Shown piece after piece: positions 3,033 to 61,474 of a stretch of DNA of 64,000 bases (positions are counted from its first letter, which is position 1; every line of letters begins with the position of its first letter). The DNA is from Flavobacteriaceae bacterium (lineage in GTDB: Bacteria > Bacteroidota > Bacteroidia > Flavobacteriales > Flavobacteriaceae): assembly GCA_050300615.1 (NCBI GenBank), contig JBNKYB010000041.1, positions 6,814-70,813 of the forward strand, read 5' to 3'. The notes under the pieces were generated by a model, which searched no databases, was not told the origin of the DNA, and saw only the letters and a list, made by a program, of their open reading frames with translations. The position numbers and the translations under genes are program-made.

Positions 3033-6000
3033 TTGAGTAAAGCAGCTTTGTTACAAACGTATGAACAGGTTTTGCAAACGCAAAATCTTGAGAATGCTAT
3101 TGCCAAAACGCAAGGTATTACGCACCTTAAAGGGCTGGTTGGTTCTTCGCTTTCTTTTATTATTTCGAGTGTTTTTAAACAATTAGAAAAACCATTTTTA
3201 TTGGTTTTTAATGATAAAGAAGAAGCCGCGTTTTATTTGAATGATCTCGAGCAATTATGTGGTGATAAAGATGTATTTTTTTACCCAGGTAGTTACCGTA
3301 GACCTTATCAAATTGAAGAAACAGATAATGCTAATGTATTATTAAGAGCAGAAGTTTTAAACAGAATAAACTCGCGTAAAAAGCCAGCCATAATCGTTAC
3401 GTATCCTGATGCGCTTTTTGAAAAAGTAGTTACCAGAAAAGAGCTAGAACGAAATACCTTAAAACTAGTTATTGGTGAAAATATTTCGATCGATTTTGTA
3501 AATGAAGTACTTTTTGAATATCAATTTAAACGCGTTGATTTTGTAACCGAACCTGGAGAGTTTTCTGTGCGTGGTGGTATTGTTGATGTGTTTTCTTTTT
3601 CGCACGACGAACCGTATCGTATTGAGTTTTTTGGTGATGAGGTTGATAGTATACGAACGTTTGATGTTGAGACTCAATTATCTCTTGAGCAGATTAAAAA
3701 GATTAGCATTATACCCAATGTTGAGAATAAATTTTTAGATGAACAACGTGAGAGTTTTTTAAAGTACAGTAAACAAAAAACAGTAGTATTTTTCAAGAAT
3801 GCCGATTTGTTTTTTTCAAGAATAGACGATTTTTATTCAAAAGCAGAAGAGACTTTTAAAACATTATCTACAGATATAAAGCACGCGGAGCCTAAGGAGT
3901 TATTTTGTAATTCTACACTTTTTAAAAAACAATTATTAGATTTTAATTTAGTTGAATTTGGAAGTGTTTCTACGCTTGCAAAAAGTGTCATGGCGAGTGA
4001 AACGAAGCAATCTGTTTCAAAGGATGAGATTGCCAAGTTGCAAGCTCCTCGTAATGAAGAAATTAGTTTCAATACGGTTCCACAACCAACCTTCAATAAA
4101 CAATTTAATTTGCTTATTGAAAATTTAAATGCGAATTACGATAAAGGGTTTACTAATTATATTGCTTGTGTAAGTGAACAACAAGCTAAACGATTTCATG
4201 ATATTTTCGATGATTCACACCTAGAAGTAAAACCCTATAAAACTATTGTATTATCCTTACATCAAGGGTTTGTAGATAACGAAAATAAGGTGGTTTGTTA
4301 TACGGATCATCAAATTTTTGAGCGCTATCATAAATTTCAACTTAAAAACGGCTATGCTAAAAAGCAGGCCATTACGTTGAAAGAGCTCACAAATTTAGAT
4401 ATTGGCGATTATGTGACGCATATAGACCATGGTATTGGACGTTTTGGAGGTCTTCAAAAAATAGATGTCGAGGGTAAAAAACAAGAAGCCATTAAGTTGG
4501 TTTATGGAGAGCGAGATGTGTTATATCTCAGCATTCACTCACTCCATAAAATTACCAAGTTTAATGGAAAAGATGGCAAGCCACCAAAAATATATAAACT
4601 TGGAAGTACAGCTTGGAAAACTTTAAAAGCTAAAACAAAAGCGCGCGTAAAGCATGTAGCGTTTAACTTAATTAAGTTGTACGCAAAACGTAAAACCGAA
4701 AAAGGCTATCAGTACAATCCAGATAGTTATATGCAGCACGAATTGGAGGCGTCTTTTATTTACGAAGATACACCAGACCAAAGCACGGCAACAGCCGATA
4801 TTAAAGTCGATATGGAAAGTGAGCGACCTATGGATCGCTTGGTGTGTGGTGACGTTGGTTTTGGTAAAACCGAAGTCGCTATTAGGGCGGCGTTTAAAGC
4901 TGTCGACAATGGTAAACAAGTTGCTGTGTTGGTGCCTACCACGATTTTGGCATATCAGCATTCCAGAACATTTTCAGAACGGTTGAAAGATTTTCCCGTA
5001 ACGGTAGATTATTTAAACCGTTTTAGAACTGCTAAAGAGAAAAGAGAAACCTTAGAAAATCTTGAAAAAGGTAAGGTCGATATCATTATTGGTACGCATC
5101 AGTTGGTTAATAAAAATGTAAAGTTTAAAGATTTAGGACTTCTTATTGTTGATGAAGAACAAAAATTTGGAGTCGCAGTCAAGGAGAAACTTAAAACTTT
5201 AAAAGAGAATGTAGATGTGTTGACATTAACGGCAACGCCTATACCAAGAACTCTGCAGTTTAGTTTAATGGCTGCGCGCGATTTATCAGTTATAACCACA
5301 CCGCCACCAAACAGATATCCTATTGAAAGCCATGTAATTCGTTTTAACGAAGAAACCATTCGAGATGCAATAAGCTACGAGATTGAGCGTGGCGGACAAA
5401 TATTTTTTATTCACAATCGTATTGAAAACATCAAGGAAGTTGCCGGCATGATTCAGCGTTTGGTACCCGATGCCAAAATAGGTATTGGTCATGGGCAGTT
5501 AGATGGTAAAAAGTTAGAACAATTAATGTTAGCCTTTATGGATGGTGCTTTTGATGTATTAGTGAGTACTACCATTATAGAAAGCGGACTCGATGTGCCT
5601 AATGCCAACACTATTTTTATTAATAATGCCAATAATTTTGGATTAAGCGATTTGCACCAAATGCGCGGTCGTGTGGGTAGAAGTAACAAAAAAGCATTTT
5701 GTTATTTTATTACACCCGAATATTCGGCAATGACCGATGATGCCAGAAAACGTATCACTGCGCTGGAACAGTTTACCGAATTAGGTAGTGGTTTTAATAT
5801 CGCCATGAAAGATTTGGAGATTCGAGGTGCAGGCGATTTATTAGGTGGCGAACAAAGTGGATTCATTAATGAAATAGGGTTCGATACGTATCAAAAAATA
5901 TTAAACGAAGCTATTGAAGAATTAAAGGAAAATGAGTTTAAAGATTTATATCAAGACGATTCTATTGAAAAAGAATATGTCAAAGATATTACGATAGATT

Positions 6001-6443
6001 CAGATTTTGAATTGCTATTTCCAGATGATTACATCAATAATATTTCAGAACGTTTAAGCCTGTATTCACAGCTTAACACGATTAAGAATGAAGAAGGTCT
6101 TAAAACTTTTGAGGCACAACTTATAGATCGTTTTGGAGAACTACCAGTTCCTGTGATAGATTTATTAGATAGCGTAAGAATTAAGTGGATTGCCAGTAAA
6201 ATTGGTTTCGAAAAAGTAATCATGAAACACGGAAAACTAGTCGGTTATTTTATTAACGACCAGCAAAGTAGTTTTTATCAAAGTAAAGCGTTCACAAAAG
6301 TGTTACAGTTTGTACAAGCAAATCCTAACAGTTGTAAAATGAAAGAAACGCAAACGCGCAATGGCTTACGGTTATTGTTAACGTTTGAATCGGTTAAATC
6401 AGTACGCCAAGCTTTAACAAAATTACAACCTATTGTGGCTTGA
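3033..6443 (+). CDS. mfd: transcription-repair coupling factor Mfd
   Basis: 1136 aa. RNAP-interaction motif GDYVTHIDHGIGRFGG. SF2 helicase motifs GDVGFGKTEVA, LIVDEEQKFG, TLTATPIPRT, QLHQMRGRVGRS. C-terminal TRCF domain. The ORF starts at TTG (3033); no upstream ATG is in frame. Confidence 0.95.
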   Translation: MSKAALLQTYEQVLQTQNLENAIAKTQGITHLKGLVGSSLSFIISSVFKQLEKPFLLVFNDKEEAAFYLNDLEQLCGDKDVFFYPGSYRRPYQIEETDNANVLLRAEVLNRINSRKKPAIIVTYPDALFEKVVTRKELERNTLKLVIGENISIDFVNEVLFEYQFKRVDFVTEPGEFSVRGGIVDVFSFSHDEPYRIEFFGDEVDSIRTFDVETQLSLEQIKKISIIPNVENKFLDEQRESFLKYSKQKTVVFFKNADLFFSRIDDFYSKAEETFKTLSTDIKHAEPKELFCNSTLFKKQLLDFNLVEFGSVSTLAKSVMASETKQSVSKDEIAKLQAPRNEEISFNTVPQPTFNKQFNLLIENLNANYDKGFTNYIACVSEQQAKRFHDIFDDSHLEVKPYKTIVLSLHQGFVDNENKVVCYTDHQIFERYHKFQLKNGYAKKQAITLKELTNLDIGDYVTHIDHGIGRFGGLQKIDVEGKKQEAIKLVYGERDVLYLSIHSLHKITKFNGKDGKPPKIYKLGSTAWKTLKAKTKARVKHVAFNLIKLYAKRKTEKGYQYNPDSYMQHELEASFIYEDTPDQSTATADIKVDMESERPMDRLVCGDVGFGKTEVAIRAAFKAVDNGKQVAVLVPTTILAYQHSRTFSERLKDFPVTVDYLNRFRTAKEKRETLENLEKGKVDIIIGTHQLVNKNVKFKDLGLLIVDEEQKFGVAVKEKLKTLKENVDVLTLTATPIPRTLQFSLMAARDLSVITTPPPNRYPIESHVIRFNEETIRDAISYEIERGGQIFFIHNRIENIKEVAGMIQRLVPDAKIGIGHGQLDGKKLEQLMLAFMDGAFDVLVSTTIIESGLDVPNANTIFINNANNFGLSDLHQMRGRVGRSNKKAFCYFITPEYSAMTDDARKRITALEQFTELGSGFNIAMKDLEIRGAGDLLGGEQSGFINEIGFDTYQKILNEAIEELKENEFKDLYQDDSIEKEYVKDITIDSDFELLFPDDYINNISERLSLYSQLNTIKNEEGLKTFEAQLIDRFGELPVPVIDLLDSVRIKWIASKIGFEKVIMKHGKLVGYFINDQQSSFYQSKAFTKVLQFVQANPNSCKMKETQTRNGLRLLLTFESVKSVRQALTKLQPIVA
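3986..4058. repeat. palindromic repeat-family copy lying in frame inside mfd (encodes about VMASETKQSVSKDEIAKLQAPRNEE)
   Basis: GTCATGGCGAG...CGAAGCAATCTgtttcaaaggatGAGATTGC...CTCCTCGTAATGA. Ends match the reverse complement of the 36.7-37.7 kb repeats (GTCATTGCGAG / TTCCTTCGTAATGACG). AAGCAATCT and GAGATTGC are identical to the repeat core. Outer stem pairs 9/10 and inner stem 7/7. Confidence 0.5.
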
Positions 6444-8237: not shown

Positions 8238-10490
8238 TCATTTTAGGGTATACCTCAAACCAAAAAACAACCGCCTACCTTGGTTGGGCGCATAAATATA
8301 ACCAGGGTCAAACGTTAAAGCATACGGGTTATCTGTCGTTTGAACCGCATTTCCATCATTGTCAAAAACCACGTTTTCATCAAAAGGGTCATTTGCCCTA
8401 GCAATGATAAAGGGGTTTCCTTTATTGGGAGTCCAGTTCAATAGGTTTTTAACACCGCCATAAAACTCAAAATTTGTTAAACCGTTATAAGTGAGTTGAA
8501 TGTTTTGAATACTCCAAACAGGAGATTCAGGCTTTCTTGGATCTAGATCGCCCAAAAGAGGTAATCGCATAGGTCCATAAATGTTACCTGTATAATCCAA
8601 TGTAAAATCGTAATTGAAATTTCTATATGAAACAGCCCAAGTTCCAGAAAACTTTTCGGTTAGTATTTGTTGCTCTTTAACACCATTGGTTTTTTGAGAC
8701 ACATCTTGCAAAGTAAATCCTGCCAATGCTTTAAAATTAGCAGATATTAAGGCATCTAAATTAAAGCTTAGGCCTAAACTGGATGCGCCTCCTTTTAAAT
8801 TGGTATAAATAACTTGGTTTGGATTGGTATCATAATCGGGTAAAATGGCATTGGTAAAATAAGTGTACCAAGCAGAAGCGTCAATACCAATAATCATATT
8901 GTTTTTGGTATATAGTTTTTTTAGGTAATTAAGGTTTATGTTATAGGATCTTTCAGGTTTTAATTCTTCTTCTATTACGACGTCTCTCGCACCATTTAAT
9001 GCAGCATGCTCCTCAGCAAACAGATTTACAACTCTAAAACCTGTTCCTGCGTTTAATCTGATAACATCGTCTTGTGTAGGTTTGAATTTATAAGCTAATC
9101 TTGGAGTGAATATATTACCATGTCTTTTATCATAGTCATACCTTGCACCAAGTAAAAGTTTGTTTCTTTCATTTAGGCTTATTTCATCTTGAACAAAAAC
9201 AGAAGGAATTAAAATTTTATCGGCTTTCTTTGTAACCGTGGTATTATCATTGTAGTAGTTGTAACGTCCTGCCATACCAAACAGCCAGTCATGGTTTAAA
9301 GTTGAAACGTCCCATGTTAATTGGCCAAACCCAATACGCTGTTGGGCTAAAAACAACGAGTTTCCATAAGCTGAATTTTGGTCATGATCAGAATACGAGA
9401 AATTAAACATTATATTTTCTTTCACGGGCAATTGATATTTTCCAATTAGCTCATATCTAGTGGTGTAAATGCTTTCGCCATAAACGTCGCTTCCACCTCT
9501 ATCATTAGGAGTCCATTGCATTTCGCCACCCCATCTGTCTTCATAAAAAAAACGTCCAGCGATAGATAATACCTTATGGGTTTTTCTATTAAAATCCCAT
9601 TTTTGAAACATCGAAATGCGGTCTTGCAATGTAACATCGGTAAAATTATCATTATTGTTATCAATAGGGTTTGAGTAATTAAAATAATTGACACCAAAAA
9701 GCACATTTGTCTTTTCTCCAACCCTTGCCTTAAAGCCTAAATCAACATTTAGTTCTTGCCAATCTGTAGCATACACATCTGTAAAAACTAAAGGAGCATT
9801 TTCTGGTATTTTTGTAATAACATTAATGAGACCGCCAACGGCTTCACTACCATATAAAGAAGATGCAGGCCCTTTTACTATTTCCACTTGTTCAATCAAA
9901 GAACTTGGGATTCCAGAAAGCCCATACACAGTAGAAAGTCCACTTACAATAGGCATCCCGTCAATTAGCACTAAAGTATAGGGGCCTTCTAAACCATTAA
10001 TATGGATGTCTCCAGTGTTGCAAACACTACAGTTAATTTGTGGTCTGACTCCATTTACGGACTGTAAGGATTCAAAGATATTGGGGGCTGGATTTTTTTT
10101 CAAAAAGGTTGTTGAGTACACTTCTACAGGAACTGGGCTTTCCAGTCTGTTTACAGGTTTCAGGGTTGCTGTTACAACAATCTCATCCATTAGCTCTACT
10201 TCTTGTAAGTTGATGTTGACTATAATATCTTGTCCTTTTAAAGAAACAGGTTTCTGAAACGACTTAAAACCTGTATAAGACGCTATTAATATGTAATCTC
10301 CTTCAGGCACATTTTCAATGACGAACTCACCATTTTCTTGACTAATTGAGCCAATTTTTGTACCTTTTAAATACACGTTTACATAAGCTAACGATTCGTT
10401 ATTGGTCGTGATTTTGCCAGATATATTAAAAGTGTTTTTAGCATTTAAGAGGCTTGAAAAAAACATAAATAAAACAATAAAGTATCTCAT
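8238..10490 (-). CDS. TonB-dependent receptor with N-terminal carboxypeptidase-regulatory-like domain
   Basis: 750 aa. Signal peptide, CarbopepD_reg-like segment (GKITTNN...VPEGDYILIASYTGF), plug (IVKGPASSLYGSEAVGGLINVITK) and a beta-barrel ending RYTLK. Confidence 0.9.
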   Translation of the reverse strand: MRYFIVLFMFFSSLLNAKNTFNISGKITTNNESLAYVNVYLKGTKIGSISQENGEFVIENVPEGDYILIASYTGFKSFQKPVSLKGQDIIVNINLQEVELMDEIVVTATLKPVNRLESPVPVEVYSTTFLKKNPAPNIFESLQSVNGVRPQINCSVCNTGDIHINGLEGPYTLVLIDGMPIVSGLSTVYGLSGIPSSLIEQVEIVKGPASSLYGSEAVGGLINVITKIPENAPLVFTDVYATDWQELNVDLGFKARVGEKTNVLFGVNYFNYSNPIDNNNDNFTDVTLQDRISMFQKWDFNRKTHKVLSIAGRFFYEDRWGGEMQWTPNDRGGSDVYGESIYTTRYELIGKYQLPVKENIMFNFSYSDHDQNSAYGNSLFLAQQRIGFGQLTWDVSTLNHDWLFGMAGRYNYYNDNTTVTKKADKILIPSVFVQDEISLNERNKLLLGARYDYDKRHGNIFTPRLAYKFKPTQDDVIRLNAGTGFRVVNLFAEEHAALNGARDVVIEEELKPERSYNINLNYLKKLYTKNNMIIGIDASAWYTYFTNAILPDYDTNPNQVIYTNLKGGASSLGLSFNLDALISANFKALAGFTLQDVSQKTNGVKEQQILTEKFSGTWAVSYRNFNYDFTLDYTGNIYGPMRLPLLGDLDPRKPESPVWSIQNIQLTYNGLTNFEFYGGVKNLLNWTPNKGNPFIIARANDPFDENVVFDNDGNAVQTTDNPYALTFDPGYIYAPNQGRRLFFGLRYTLK

Positions 10491-36276: not shown

Positions 36277-36750
36277 ATGCAAACCAAAAAAACATATACG
36301 GTACAAGAAGCTACCAAAAAATTAGAGCATTATTGTGCGTATCAAGAACGTTGTCATCAAGAGGTTAAAAACAAGCTAACCAATATGCATATGATTCCTG
36401 AGGCTATCGATGTGATTATCGTTCACCTGTTAGAACATAACTTTCTTAATGAAGAACGTTTTGCCAAAACATTTGCTAGCGGTAAGTTTAAAATTAAGAA
36501 TTGGGGGAAACGTCGAATTGCTTTTGAACTTAAGAAAAAAGACGTTTCCAAAATTAATATAAATCAAGCACTTACAGAAATAACTGACGAGGAGTACATC
36601 GATGTTTTTAATGATTTAGCCGAGAAAAGAGTTAATTTAATCCAAGAATCCAACGTTTTTAAAAAGCGGAAAAAGTTTGTTGACTATTTTTTATACCGTG
36701 GCTGGGAGTCGCATTTGGTGTATGAAAAGGCGAATGAGTTGATACAATAA
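36277..36750 (+). CDS. recX: RecX regulatory protein
   Basis: Start taken at MQTKKTYTVQEATKKLEHYCAYQERCHQEV, the typical RecX N-terminus. Three helical repeats, about 157 aa. Confidence 0.8.
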   Translation: MQTKKTYTVQEATKKLEHYCAYQERCHQEVKNKLTNMHMIPEAIDVIIVHLLEHNFLNEERFAKTFASGKFKIKNWGKRRIAFELKKKDVSKININQALTEITDEEYIDVFNDLAEKRVNLIQESNVFKKRKKFVDYFLYRGWESHLVYEKANELIQ

Positions 36751-36752
36751 CT

Positions 36753-37208
36753 CGTCATTACGAAGGAGGCACGACTGAAGTAATCTGTTTAATAGGAGTT
36801 TATAAATCGTGAGATTGCTTCGCTTTGCTCGCAATGAGGGTTCCATGTCGTCACTACGAGGAATTTATAACGTGGGGGTCTTTAACGTTGTAGTTATAAT
36901 CATTAGATTGCTTCACTGCGTTCGCAATGACGTTTATTTCGTCATTACGAAGGAAGTATGACTGAAGTAAACTGTTTAATAGGAGTTTATAAATCGTGAG
37001 ATTGCTTTGTTGAGCTCGCAATGACGTTTCCATGTCGTCACTGTGAGGAATTTATAACGTGGCAGTCTTTACTTTGTTTATAATCATAAGATTGCTTCGC
37101 TTTGCTCGCAATGACGTTTATTTCGTCATTACGAAGGAAGTATGACTGAAGTAATCTGTTTAAAAGGAGTTTAAATCATGAGATTGCTTAGCACTGCTCG
37201 CAATGACG
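36753..37208. repeat. five contiguous palindromic ~85-nt repeat units in A-B-A-B-A order
   Basis: A units: 36753-36838, 36940-37026, 37124-37208. B units: 36849-36932, 37036-37116. Each starts CGTCA(T/C)T(A/G)(C/T)GA and ends TCGCAATGA(C/G)G (terminal inverted repeat). Each has an inner inverted repeat (A: GAAGTAATCT/AGATTGCTTC). Confidence 0.85.
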
Positions 37209-37243
37209 TTCAGAAAGAATACAAGAAATCATTATATTTATTC

Positions 37244-37543
37244 ATGCACAAATCATATGTCTATTTTATGACTAATAAAAACAACACCGTTATTTATATT
37301 GGTGTTACCAATGATTTATTAAAAAGAGTATATCAGCATAAAACAAAATCTTATAAAGGGTTTACACAGAAATATAATTGTAATAAATTGGTTTATTTTG
37401 AAGAGTTTACAGATATAAACCAAGCTATTTTAAGAGAAAAGCAATTAAAATCTGGAAACAGAAAACGAAAAAAGGATTTGATTAACGCTACCAATCCAGA
37501 GTGGAATGATTTATCTGATGGCTGGCTCTTTTATTTTGATTAA
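37244..37543 (+). CDS. GIY-YIG nuclease-superfamily mini-protein (UPF0213/COG2827-like)
   Basis: Start taken at MHKSYVYFMTNKNNTVIYIGVTNDL (the GIY..YIG motif). R/E catalytic region LREKQLKSGNRKRK. About 99 aa. The track's upstream 22 aa (MRLLSTARNDV...) are translated repeat sequence. Confidence 0.85.
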   Translation: MHKSYVYFMTNKNNTVIYIGVTNDLLKRVYQHKTKSYKGFTQKYNCNKLVYFEEFTDINQAILREKQLKSGNRKRKKDLINATNPEWNDLSDGWLFYFD

Positions 37544-37568: not shown

Positions 37569-37654
37569 CGTTATTACGAAGTAGGTACGGCTGAAGTAAT
37601 CTATTTAAATGAGTTTATAAATCATAAGATTGCTTCGCTCCGCTCGCAATGACG
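37569..37654. repeat. sixth A-type palindromic repeat unit, downstream of the GIY-YIG gene
   Basis: CGTTATTACGAAGTAGG...GAAGTAATCT...AGATTGCTTCGCTCCGCTCGCAATGACG. Confidence 0.8.
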
Positions 37655-37667
37655 ATTACAGATGAAC

Positions 37668-59596: not shown

Positions 59597-61474
59597 ATGG
59601 ATATCATAGATTTAAGCATTATAATTTTTTACGTCCTCTTAACTGTTGGAGTAGGCGTTTGGATTTCTAAAAGGGCATCAAAAGGGTTAGATCATTACTT
59701 CTTAGGGGGGAAATCTATCAAATGGTACTATTTAGGTTTAAGTAATGGCTCAGGTATGTTTGATATATCTGGCACGGCATGGATGGTTGGTATTTTGTTT
59801 TTATACGGCGTAAAAAGTTTCATGTTTATGTGGCTTTGGCCCATATGGAATCAAATTTTTGTCATGATGTTCTTAGCCGTTTGGATTAGGCGATCTAAAG
59901 TGATGACGGGTTCTGAATGGATTTTAACGCGCTTTGGAAATGACAGAGCAGGTAAAGCATCTCATATTATAGTGGCTATTTTTGCTATTGTTTCGGCCAT
60001 AGGGTTTATAGCCTACTTTTTTGAAGGGATTGGTAAATTTATGACCGTTATTTTACCTTGGGATTTAACCCTTCATTTAGGTCAGTCCGTCTTATTTAGC
60101 TCAGAACAATCATATGCATTGATTATCATATTCTTAACTACGGTATACACGGTTAAAGGAGGTATGTTTTCTGTGGTTGCTACCGAAGTGTTACAGTATG
60201 GTATTATGGTCATTGCGGGTATTCTTGTGGCAGGTTATACGTTAATATATTTCACAGATATTCAAATAACCTCTGTAATTTCAGAAGAATGGAAGAATGT
60301 ATTTTTTAATTGGGAACTTGATGAGCAATGGAGTTCAAAATATCAAGTTTTTAATAATTTAATAGATTCTGAAGGCTATAAAATGTTAGGGGCTTTGGTA
60401 GGAATGTCTCTATTTAAAGGATTTTTTGCCAGTATTGCTGGGCCAATACCAAGCTATGACTTACAAAGGATACTGTCTACAAAATCAGTTAAAGAGGCAG
60501 CTTACATGAGTGGTTTTACCAATTTAATTTTATTTATTCCAAGGTATTTATTAATTGCAGGTATTGTTGTTATTGCTTTAGTTACATTGGCTCCGGAGAT
60601 GGCTTCAAATACAGCTTTAAGTGGTGCCGATTTAGAAATATTATTACCAAAAATTATAAATTTTCACGTACCAGTGGGGATAAAAGGGTTATTGTTAGCA
60701 GGACTATTGGCAGCTTTTATGTCCACATTTTCTGCATTTGTAAATGCAGGGCCAGCTTATATAGTTAATGATATTTATAAGAAATATTTTAAACCTAAAG
60801 CAACAAGTGAGCACTATATTAAAATAAGCCATATAGCCTCATTTGTAGTTGTAGGTTTAGGTGTTTTTATGGGCTTTTTTGCAGACTCTATTAACTCATT
60901 AACATTGTGGATTACAAGTTCTTTATTTGGAGGTTATGTGGCAGCCAATTTTTTAAAATGGGTATGGTGGCGTTTTAATGGATGGGGGTATTTTTGGGGA
61001 ATGTTTTCAGGACTTGTGATAGCTTCATTGCAATTTGTTTTAGATCAAAATAAAGGAAACTTTACAACAGGAACATTTTTTTATAATTTATCAGAACTAC
61101 AGGCTATTTACTTATTTCCAATCATATTTGGGTTTTCAATAATTGGGTCACTTTTAGGAACCTTCTTAACAAAACCTACAAATATTGATGTATTAAAATC
61201 GTTTTACACCAATGTAAGACCTTGGGGGTTTTGGAAGCCGGTTTATAATACATTAAAATCTGAAGACGCCTCTTTTACAAAGAATAAAGATTTTTCAAGA
61301 GATATGTTAAACTGCGTTATAGGAATTGTATGGCAATCCAGTATGATTGTGCTGCCAATATTTCTGTTAATTAGAGACTATCCAAAGACAATAATTTCGT
61401 TGATTGTGTTTTTAGTCACTTCAATCATTTTAAAATATACTTGGTTGGATAGAGTTAGAAGACTACCTGATTAA
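59597..61474 (+). CDS. sodium:solute symporter (SSS) family transporter
   Basis: 625 aa, about 13-14 TM helices. Typical SSS N-terminus (YFLGGKSI). Confidence 0.8.
   Translation: MDIIDLSIIIFYVLLTVGVGVWISKRASKGLDHYFLGGKSIKWYYLGLSNGSGMFDISGTAWMVGILFLYGVKSFMFMWLWPIWNQIFVMMFLAVWIRRSKVMTGSEWILTRFGNDRAGKASHIIVAIFAIVSAIGFIAYFFEGIGKFMTVILPWDLTLHLGQSVLFSSEQSYALIIIFLTTVYTVKGGMFSVVATEVLQYGIMVIAGILVAGYTLIYFTDIQITSVISEEWKNVFFNWELDEQWSSKYQVFNNLIDSEGYKMLGALVGMSLFKGFFASIAGPIPSYDLQRILSTKSVKEAAYMSGFTNLILFIPRYLLIAGIVVIALVTLAPEMASNTALSGADLEILLPKIINFHVPVGIKGLLLAGLLAAFMSTFSAFVNAGPAYIVNDIYKKYFKPKATSEHYIKISHIASFVVVGLGVFMGFFADSINSLTLWITSSLFGGYVAANFLKWVWWRFNGWGYFWGMFSGLVIASLQFVLDQNKGNFTTGTFFYNLSELQAIYLFPIIFGFSIIGSLLGTFLTKPTNIDVLKSFYTNVRPWGFWKPVYNTLKSEDASFTKNKDFSRDMLNCVIGIVWQSSMIVLPIFLLIRDYPKTIISLIVFLVTSIILKYTWLDRVRRLPD

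Follow-up and report, generated by a model that had tools for sequence, protein, structure and literature searches.

A palindromic repeat read in frame within mfd of a Yeosuana-like flavobacterium, at a linker occupied by several repeat families

In the gene mfd, which encodes the transcription-repair coupling factor, of a Yeosuana-like member of the Flavobacteriaceae (33% G+C), a segment of 72 nt is in all likelihood (about 85% by our own estimate) a copy of a multi-copy hairpin repeat that lies in frame, contains no stop codon, is translated, and adds 24 residues to a linker of variable length. The gene lies in a 64,000-nt stretch of contig JBNKYB010000041.1 (assembly GCA_050300615.1, positions 6,814 to 70,813 of the forward strand), hereafter the window, for which an earlier reading of the letters alone (the original prediction) had proposed that a palindromic repeat of the kind found between genes at 36.7–37.7 kb was inserted in frame in mfd. 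Examination of this site across the family revealed that it is filled, in different genera, by palindromes of several unrelated types, and is empty in most orthologs.

Results

A copy of an intergenic repeat within a coding sequence

The element amounts to exactly 24 codons (V319–E342), the GTC of its tag forming one codon, and the open reading frame of the gene continues intact through it. The features concerned are as follows.

3033..6443, + strand: coding sequence of mfd (transcription-repair coupling factor), 1136 aa, intact and reading through the repeat element
3987..4058, + strand: palindromic repeat element of 72 nt, in which two hairpin units form an inverted dimer with the tags on the outside; in translation it reads VMASETKQSVSKDEIAKLQAPRNE (codons 319–342)
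3987..4013, + strand: left hairpin unit, with tag (T)GTC at 3986/3987–3989, stem ATGGC at 3990–3994, a 12-nt loop, stem GCAAT at 4007–4011 and tail CT at 4012–4013
4014..4026, + strand: central spacer GTTTCAAAGGATG, shorter than the stop-containing spacer of about 23 nt in the intergenic units
4027..4058, + strand: right hairpin unit, inverted, with AG-ATTGC at 4027–4033, a loop, GTAAT at 4051–4055 and a degenerate tag GAA at 4056–4058

The original prediction had the right locus, and its limits (3986–4058, about 73 nt) are here refined to 3987–4058, since base 3986 is the T of the TGTC tag. The words that it quoted from the segment are all present (GTCATGGCGAG at 3987–3997, AAGCAATCT at 4005–4013, AGATTGC at 4027–4033 and CTCGTAATGA at 4048–4057), and the pairing that it described is found, with eight Watson-Crick pairs, one G-T pair and one mismatch among the 10 positions of the outer stem, and seven pairs out of seven in the inner stem. 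The first of these words differs by one mismatch from GTCATTGCGAG, which, with at most one mismatch allowed, occurs eight times in the window (0.48 expected), and AAGCAATCT occurs nine times (1.06 expected). Outside the repeat array and the mfd site, the window holds one more match to GTCATTGCGAG and two more to AAGCAATCT; the word matches at 60209 and 23141 were rejected as repeat copies, as they lie inside genes, are non-palindromic and are attributable to chance. The predicted RNA fold of the element reaches –20 kcal/mol (z = –1.98; 7 of 200 shuffles as good), and its predicted DNA fold –12.8 kcal/mol (z = –3.0; 1 of 200 shuffles as good).

The intergenic members of the family lie on both sides of a small nuclease gene:

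36753..37210, – strand: five intergenic repeat units of the same family as the mfd element, 86–89 nt each (66–81 bits each), starting 3 nt past the stop codon of the upstream open reading frame
37244..37540, + strand: gene for a single-domain GIY-YIG nuclease of about 99 aa, within the repeat array (Pfam PF01541, E = 1.8e-17, residues 3–76 of 99)
37569..37656, – strand: sixth intergenic repeat unit (81.5 bits), downstream of the GIY-YIG gene

Each intergenic unit has the layout CGTC-ATTGC-GAGCAAAGCGAA-GCAAT-CT, which is that of the left unit in mfd. Relatives read ATTGC where the left stem of the window copy has ATGGC, and the tag of their right unit is GAC, or in full GACG, as against GAA in the window. 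Put into the reading frame of mfd, the intergenic copies would run ...GAT TTA TAA..., with a stop codon in the spacer. When a profile hidden Markov model of 87 positions was built from the six intergenic units alone and searched with nhmmer, the best match after the training copies was mfd 3987–4057 on the + strand (20.7 bits, E = 2.6e-5, model positions 4–85, i.e., 82 positions), and the next one (E = 0.11) was the same site on the opposite strand. This near full-length match bears out the resemblance to the repeats at 36.7–37.7 kb that had been noticed by eye.

Insertion and recurrent occupation of one site

We aligned 120 close Mfd homologs and fetched the mfd loci of 80 GTDB species and of 80 metagenome contigs (fetched loci are given L-numbers, Mfd proteins P-numbers). 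Because the search patterns lay outside the element, the species sample is not biased towards carriers of an insert. Measured between the anchors ...EFG and FNTxPQPxFNKQF, the segment varies from 7 to 36 residues across orthologs, between highly conserved flanks. Its modal length is 10–11 residues; among the 78 usable loci of GTDB species, 51 have a segment of at most 13 aa and 25 one of at least 15 aa, and long segments (15–36 residues) are present in about one-third of Flavobacteriaceae Mfd orthologs. Tags of the form GTCAY/RTGAC occur in 17 of the 25 long segments vs. 2 of the 51 short ones. Alignment of orthologs, the check that had been proposed for the claim, thus identifies the 24-residue block as an insertion relative to the 10–11 residues of most Flavobacteriaceae. 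Orthologs of baseline length lack the insertion, but it is not limited to this genome: the same element is found at the same site in many Algibacter, Hwangdonia, Wocania and Mariniflexile-like orthologs. The profile of intergenic units likewise matches the mfd site in six orthologous loci as it does in the window (L085, 37 bits; L084, 30; L083, 30; L087, 26; L001, 20; L004, 18), with few other matches in the 2.17 Mb searched.

A chance resemblance, or an ordinary low-complexity linker, was tested as an explanation and rejected as very improbable. The linker is hypervariable, and short words do find chance matches at other positions of the window (60209 and 23141), but chance would have to account for a near full-length profile match with E = 2.6e-5, for six more genomes with a match at the orthologous position, for a DNA fold with z = –3.0, and for the tying of tags to long segments.

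The extra DNA at this site belongs to several palindromic families, mostly with GTCAY...RTGAC ends. The window type (VIAS..KQS..EI..S..PRND) is present in Hwangdonia, Algibacter and metagenomic relatives; a second type, HPELVSGS..ILKQVQND, in A. agarivorans and L048, with remnants in Lutibacter; a third, VTSSAVEM..LDSARDD, in L017 and L019; and further types in Flagellimonas, Croceitalea, Microcosmobacter and others. The number of sequence types at the site is at least eight, and several of them form strong hairpins (z from –3.4 to –8.8). In 1.78 Mb of fetched sequence, tags of the form GTCAYNNYGARC number 75 vs. 9–19 in shuffles, and 11 of the 18 that fall inside long open reading frames sit at the mfd site. 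Of two structure-based searches for copies, one for strict palindromes gave specific hits but overlooked most copies, and a generic hairpin detector (GTC plus a stem of at least 5 bp) was dropped, having returned 213 hits vs. 236 in shuffled sequence.

The third type provides the closest view of gain. The elements of L017 and L019 are both 72 nt long, 86% identical and at the same mfd position, and L017 is longer than its congener L016 by exactly this length; the congeners L014, L016, L073, L020 and L021 are empty at the site. In a neighbour-joining tree of the Mfd core, L017 falls within Winogradskyella and L019 within Aquimarina, and raised similarity between the two is confined to the insert and its flanks of about 25 nt. 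The two elements are separate gains and do not go back to one ancestral segment.

A possible, though rather unlikely, explanation for such recurrence is that the mfd site is actively targeted, so that lineages repeatedly gain elements at exactly this position, either because insertion is site-specific or because short patches pass from one lineage to another; and since the mfd copies would then be younger than their host genes, their low divergence would be explained. The independent gains of near-identical elements in L017 and L019 amid empty congeners agree with it, as do the 25 nt or so flanking these inserts, which are also closer between the two loci than to the congeners, and the gathering at one site of many unrelated repeat types and of most intragenic tags. 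However, the 51 empty sites share no conserved target sequence; a tolerant linker, together with purifying selection elsewhere, would likewise concentrate the surviving intragenic copies; L028 and L035 have a second in-frame site near the Mfd N-terminus; and a comparison of host with element distances showed the hosts to be about equally distant from one another, in a star-like manner.

Other in-frame repeats were seen in the same loci. The second site in mfd carries a single hairpin unit (GTCACTTCGAGC...) at 10079–10120 in both L028 and L035, which reads VTSSAVDK / VTSSSVEK in Flagellimonas halotolerans and Allomuricauda sp. and is absent from L029, L040 and the window. A second, smaller perfect palindrome, CCCGATAGCTATCGGG (read as PDSYR), is nested in the loop of the mfd repeat at L003 10953–10972 and L002 14942–14961 (and in P0013, P0014 and P0025), and is also present outside mfd in L002, i.e., a repeat within a repeat within a gene. 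In two distant genera (L040 23188–23199 and L076 19625–19636), the C-terminal linker of methionyl-tRNA synthetase contains an in-frame GTCATGCTGAAC tag, which is read as ..RHAELDSA.. and ..GHAELVEA..; this may be either an old repeat-derived segment or a chance match.

Placement in the protein

The window Mfd is identical (100%) to protein P0001 and 95% identical to the Mfd of Yeosuana marina, and contains all of the Pfam domains expected of it, UvrB_inter (143–229), RID (455–509), DEAD (580–741), Helicase_C (777–884) and TRCF (991–1083). The element is situated between the first two, and the original prediction was right to place the motif for interaction with RNA polymerase (near residue 458) on its C-terminal side, in what Pfam delimits as RID. 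Mapping onto a structure, which had been suggested as a further check, is answered weakly: in an AlphaFold model built with 50 close orthologs and used for secondary structure alone, residues 310–353 are coil between a strand (305–309) and a helix (354–370), with the segment thus in predicted coil between Pfam domains, but confidence in this model is poor (pLDDT 47, pTM 0.29). Residues 230–411 gave no alignment to solved Mfd structures in sequence and profile searches, and the position of the site in E. coli Mfd could therefore not be assigned. The D3 region of Mfd has been described as non-conserved (PMC7864632). The strongest evidence that the linker tolerates insertions is comparative, namely the variation in its length among orthologs.

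Decay and nucleotide-level conservation

Several of the inserted copies are eroded. The element of Y. marina has an internal deletion of 39 nt, Y. aromativorans retains a remnant of another repeat type at the site, P0100 and P0082 have other internal deletions, and some orthologs are without the middle or one half. Compared with P0002 (99% identical), the window Mfd differs at 8 residues, two of which are within the element, and at both of these it is the window that departs from the repeat consensus. Because of these substitutions and of the deletions in relatives, we regard the window copy as old and decaying.

The copies of the window type resemble one another more closely than would be expected of purely neutral passengers. 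In a codon alignment of seven orthologs with the window-type element (1005 codons), third-position identity is 0.786 in the 24 element codons and 0.544 ± 0.047 in the rest of mfd, where the best non-overlapping window of 24 codons reaches 0.673. Amino-acid identity is 0.57 in the element vs. 0.86 in the rest of the gene. Within the element, conservation is about equal at first, second and third codon positions, and the similarity is therefore held at the level of nucleotides and not of protein. The seven copies share the length of 72 nt and a spacer that the intergenic copies lack, which argues against repeated copying from the repeats of each genome.

One reading of this pattern, which we consider unlikely, is that the element is more than a passive passenger, its nucleotides being preserved because the hairpin has a function in mfd DNA or mRNA; it could be, for example, a binding or cleavage site for a GIY-YIG nuclease, a pause or stability element that tunes mfd expression, or a recombination site. 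The excess of third-position identity over the rest of the gene, and over its best window elsewhere, would be expected in that case, as would the lower amino-acid identity of the element. Stem columns are modestly more often identical (0.82) than other columns (0.72), 88–91% of stem cells remain paired across the seven orthologs, and the common length and spacer favor common descent over repeated copying. But third positions are equally conserved in stems (0.78) and loops (0.79), a pattern that fits a younger age of the copies as well as it does selection on structure, and covariation was not significant among the seven sequences for either the long-range or the local hairpin. Furthermore, the element is decaying in the window lineage and in Y. 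marina, through stem-weakening substitutions and the 39-nt deletion, and it is dispensable, since many orthologs have none at all. Two explanations for the conservation of third positions remain: a hairpin under selection, or copies that are younger than the genes around them, through targeted gain or short-patch transfer.

The repeat array and its GIY-YIG gene

The GIY-YIG gene of the window has repeat units on both sides, and its product is, from its sequence and setting, a candidate nuclease of the Ssn family that acts on single-stranded DNA, and might mobilise the repeats or bind to them. No NCBIfam equivalog was found for it, and the closest solved structures are UvrC (E = 0.004) and UPF0213 BH0048 (E = 0.026). 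The fetched loci contain seven homologs of this gene. The 12-nt tag lies no more than 400 nt from three of them, and inspection by eye finds GTCAY-tagged hairpins on at least one side of six. Inverted tagged hairpins bracket the homologs of L054, L048 and L017, those of L054 being of the ATTGC type as in the mfd element; in L055, L027 and L045 the bracketing is one-sided or degenerate. That the intergenic repeats derive from mfd was rejected, because members of the family are found beside GIY-YIG genes in several genera, and the mfd site holds many unrelated repeat types. At gathering score no Rfam family matches the repeats, and the sole weak match is DUF2815 RNA (E = 0.69).

In annotation, the array at 36691–37240 yields spurious open reading frames of translated repeats (e.g., MEPSLRAKRSNL..., MRLLRFARNEG...), and repeats give the GIY-YIG open reading frame a false N-terminal extension (MRLLSTARNDV...); its real start probably falls at 37244 or beyond. 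A GIY-YIG gene with hairpin repeats is found within about 0.4–1.1 kb downstream of mfd in the Tenacibaculum/Polaribacter clade (L045 13769–14008, L048 14401–14682 and L055 14446–14727), and in L045 a repeat of the window type begins 6 nt past the mfd stop codon. Elsewhere in the window, positions 783–844 on the – strand match a tRNA model at 30.7 bits (gathering score 29) over model positions 5–66 only, and may be a truncated or degenerate tRNA.

Discussion

On the reading that we think most probable, a repeat of two inverted units, with (C)GTCAY tags outward, entered mfd in frame and without stop codons, at a linker that seems to connect the UvrB-homology module with D3, the lineage-specific region. 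The comparisons show its homology to the repeat family, its insertion relative to an ancestral site without it, its read-through, the filling of this site more than once by different repeat families, and decay afterwards through point changes and internal deletions. Copies may spread by way of single-stranded DNA on which the GIY-YIG nuclease acts; in a gene as conserved as this one, selection would leave only those copies that are in frame, free of stop codons and in a tolerant linker, and the added peptide would form a neutral or nearly neutral surface loop.

Several observations weigh against this account. The 51 empty mfd sites have no target motif (GTCA/TGAC is present in 4 of the 51), no target-site duplication was found, and neither transposition nor copying was seen to take place. 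Third-position identity of 79% vs. 54% is more than a purely neutral passenger accounts for, and the structural placement of the segment depends on a model of low confidence (pLDDT 47). With respect to the families to which we compare it, the stems of the window type are 5 bp and its loops 12 nt, vs. 8–9 bp and 4–5 nt in defined CGTC families, and the SRM pattern of the Ssn system (HGTCWYN(0-2)YYVSBRHN(0-5)WNVSBRGN(0-2)RNCYNB) matches neither the mfd element nor the intergenic units of the window.

The kind of event is already known: palindromic repeats of the repetitive extragenic palindrome (REP) class and Rickettsia palindromic elements (RPEs) insert in frame, often in repair genes. REPs with an unpaired CGTC tag (variants TGTC and CCTC) have a stem that starts with A-T and is 8–9 bp long, with a loop of 4–5 nt; they occur in many copies per genome, often as inverted dimers, and are mostly intergenic, downstream of genes (PMC3733652). 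In their analysis, Di Nocera, De Gregorio & Rocco (2013, BMC Genomics 14:522; PMC3733652) included the flavobacterium Gramella forsetii, counted as CGTC-positive, and described in-frame intragenic REPs that encode 20–30 residues and are over-represented in genes for replication and repair (uvrA/B/D, recBCD, polA and dnaE2), but found no enzyme dedicated to CGTC-tagged REPs.

The flavobacterial repeats are like these in the (C/T)GTC tag, the stem starting with AT, the short tail and the inverted-dimer layout. The tag is TGTC at 3986–3989 in the window and CGTC in the intergenic units, and the relatives L083–L087 have CGTC at both ends of the element (AACGTCATT...AATGACG). Their multi-copy nature is evident from the six units of the window and the excess of tags over shuffled sequence. 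Despite its AT start, the window type (ATTGC/GCAAT, 5 bp, with a 12-nt loop) departs from the CGTC definition in stem and loop, whereas the mfd elements of L002 and L048 fit it (ATCCTGAA-CTTGT-TTCAGGAT, with an 8-bp stem and a 5-nt loop). At the mfd site of L002 (Algibacter agarivorans), the peptide RHSELVSGS of a Sulfurovum CGTC-2 insert recurs as RHPELVSGS. In PMC3733652, in contrast, mfd is not among the host genes listed, none of the listed intragenic cases is flavobacterial, and repeated occupation of one site by different families does not appear.

The RPEs (Ogata et al. 2000, as cited in PMC3733652) are there given as palindromic repeats that lie in frame in functional genes and are translated. 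The mfd element is likewise a palindrome in frame in a conserved gene, read through, and absent from other orthologs; the two differ in phylum and lifestyle, the hosts of the mfd element being free-living marine Flavobacteriaceae. RPE-1 elements are longer. The comparison with RPEs in the original prediction was apt, as RPE-4 (CGTC-4) and RPE-6 (CGTC-1) belong to the CGTC superfamily (PMC3733652), whose tag, AT-start stem and dimer layout are found in the flavobacterial repeats. By that classification, and not by direct sequence comparison, RPEs and the flavobacterial repeats probably share a class, and their likeness goes beyond the superficial.

A partner enzyme is known for a similar type of hairpin. 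Ssn nucleases, single-domain GIY-YIG proteins of about 100 aa assigned to CDD cd10448, bind CGTCAT-tagged hairpins (NTS/SRM) that flank their genes and cut them as single-stranded DNA, site-specifically and next to the hairpin; NTS are rarely intragenic (2%), and the idea that Ssn takes part in copying the repeats is a hypothesis only (Chenal 2025, Nat Commun 16:2388, PMC11893778). The layout repeat-ssn-repeat is matched by the small GIY-YIG gene between tagged hairpins in the window, L054, L048 and L017. Over the 2.17 Mb searched, the SRM pattern is matched only 6 times, as against 4 times in shuffled sequence. Two of the six matches, at L001 4206–4233 (Hwangdonia) and L047 501–528 (Polaribacter), are canonical NTS-like copies (TGTCATTCCCGCGAAGGCGGGAATCT), which are almost identical to the Neisseria NTS core. 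These copies imply that a canonical Ssn-type hairpin coexists with the diverged AT-rich types in Flavobacteriaceae.

Our literature searches returned no report of such an insertion in mfd or in Flavobacteriaceae, nor of the recurrent pattern at a single site. The statement that this behavior had not been described for the flavobacterial family therefore stands within the literature searched, but intragenic REPs in general were described in 2013.

Combining the two alternatives weighed above, it is conceivable, if doubtful, that the linker between the UvrB-homology module and D3 is, across Flavobacteriaceae, a recurrent and possibly targeted landing site of repeats associated with GIY-YIG nucleases, where the element is then held at the nucleotide level as a functional hairpin. 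If so, a repair gene would contain a functional DNA or RNA hairpin, e.g., one at which a nuclease of single-stranded DNA or the transcription machinery acts on mfd.

The finding extends in-frame colonisation by palindromes, on record for Rickettsia and for a few Proteobacteria and Verrucomicrobia, to mfd and to Flavobacteriaceae that live free in the sea, and adds a case to the unexplained excess of palindromic inserts in DNA-repair genes. The inserts inflate differences in Mfd length between orthologs, and the peptides VIAS..KQS..PRND, HPELVSGS..LKQVQHD and VTSSAVE..LDSARDD should be treated as repeat-derived in annotation and alignments. Because the linker is filled, half-deleted or empty among close relatives, it offers a natural series for the gain and loss of repeats in the CGTC/Ssn class, and the conservation of synonymous sites in the element is a testable hint that some of the intragenic copies may not be neutral.

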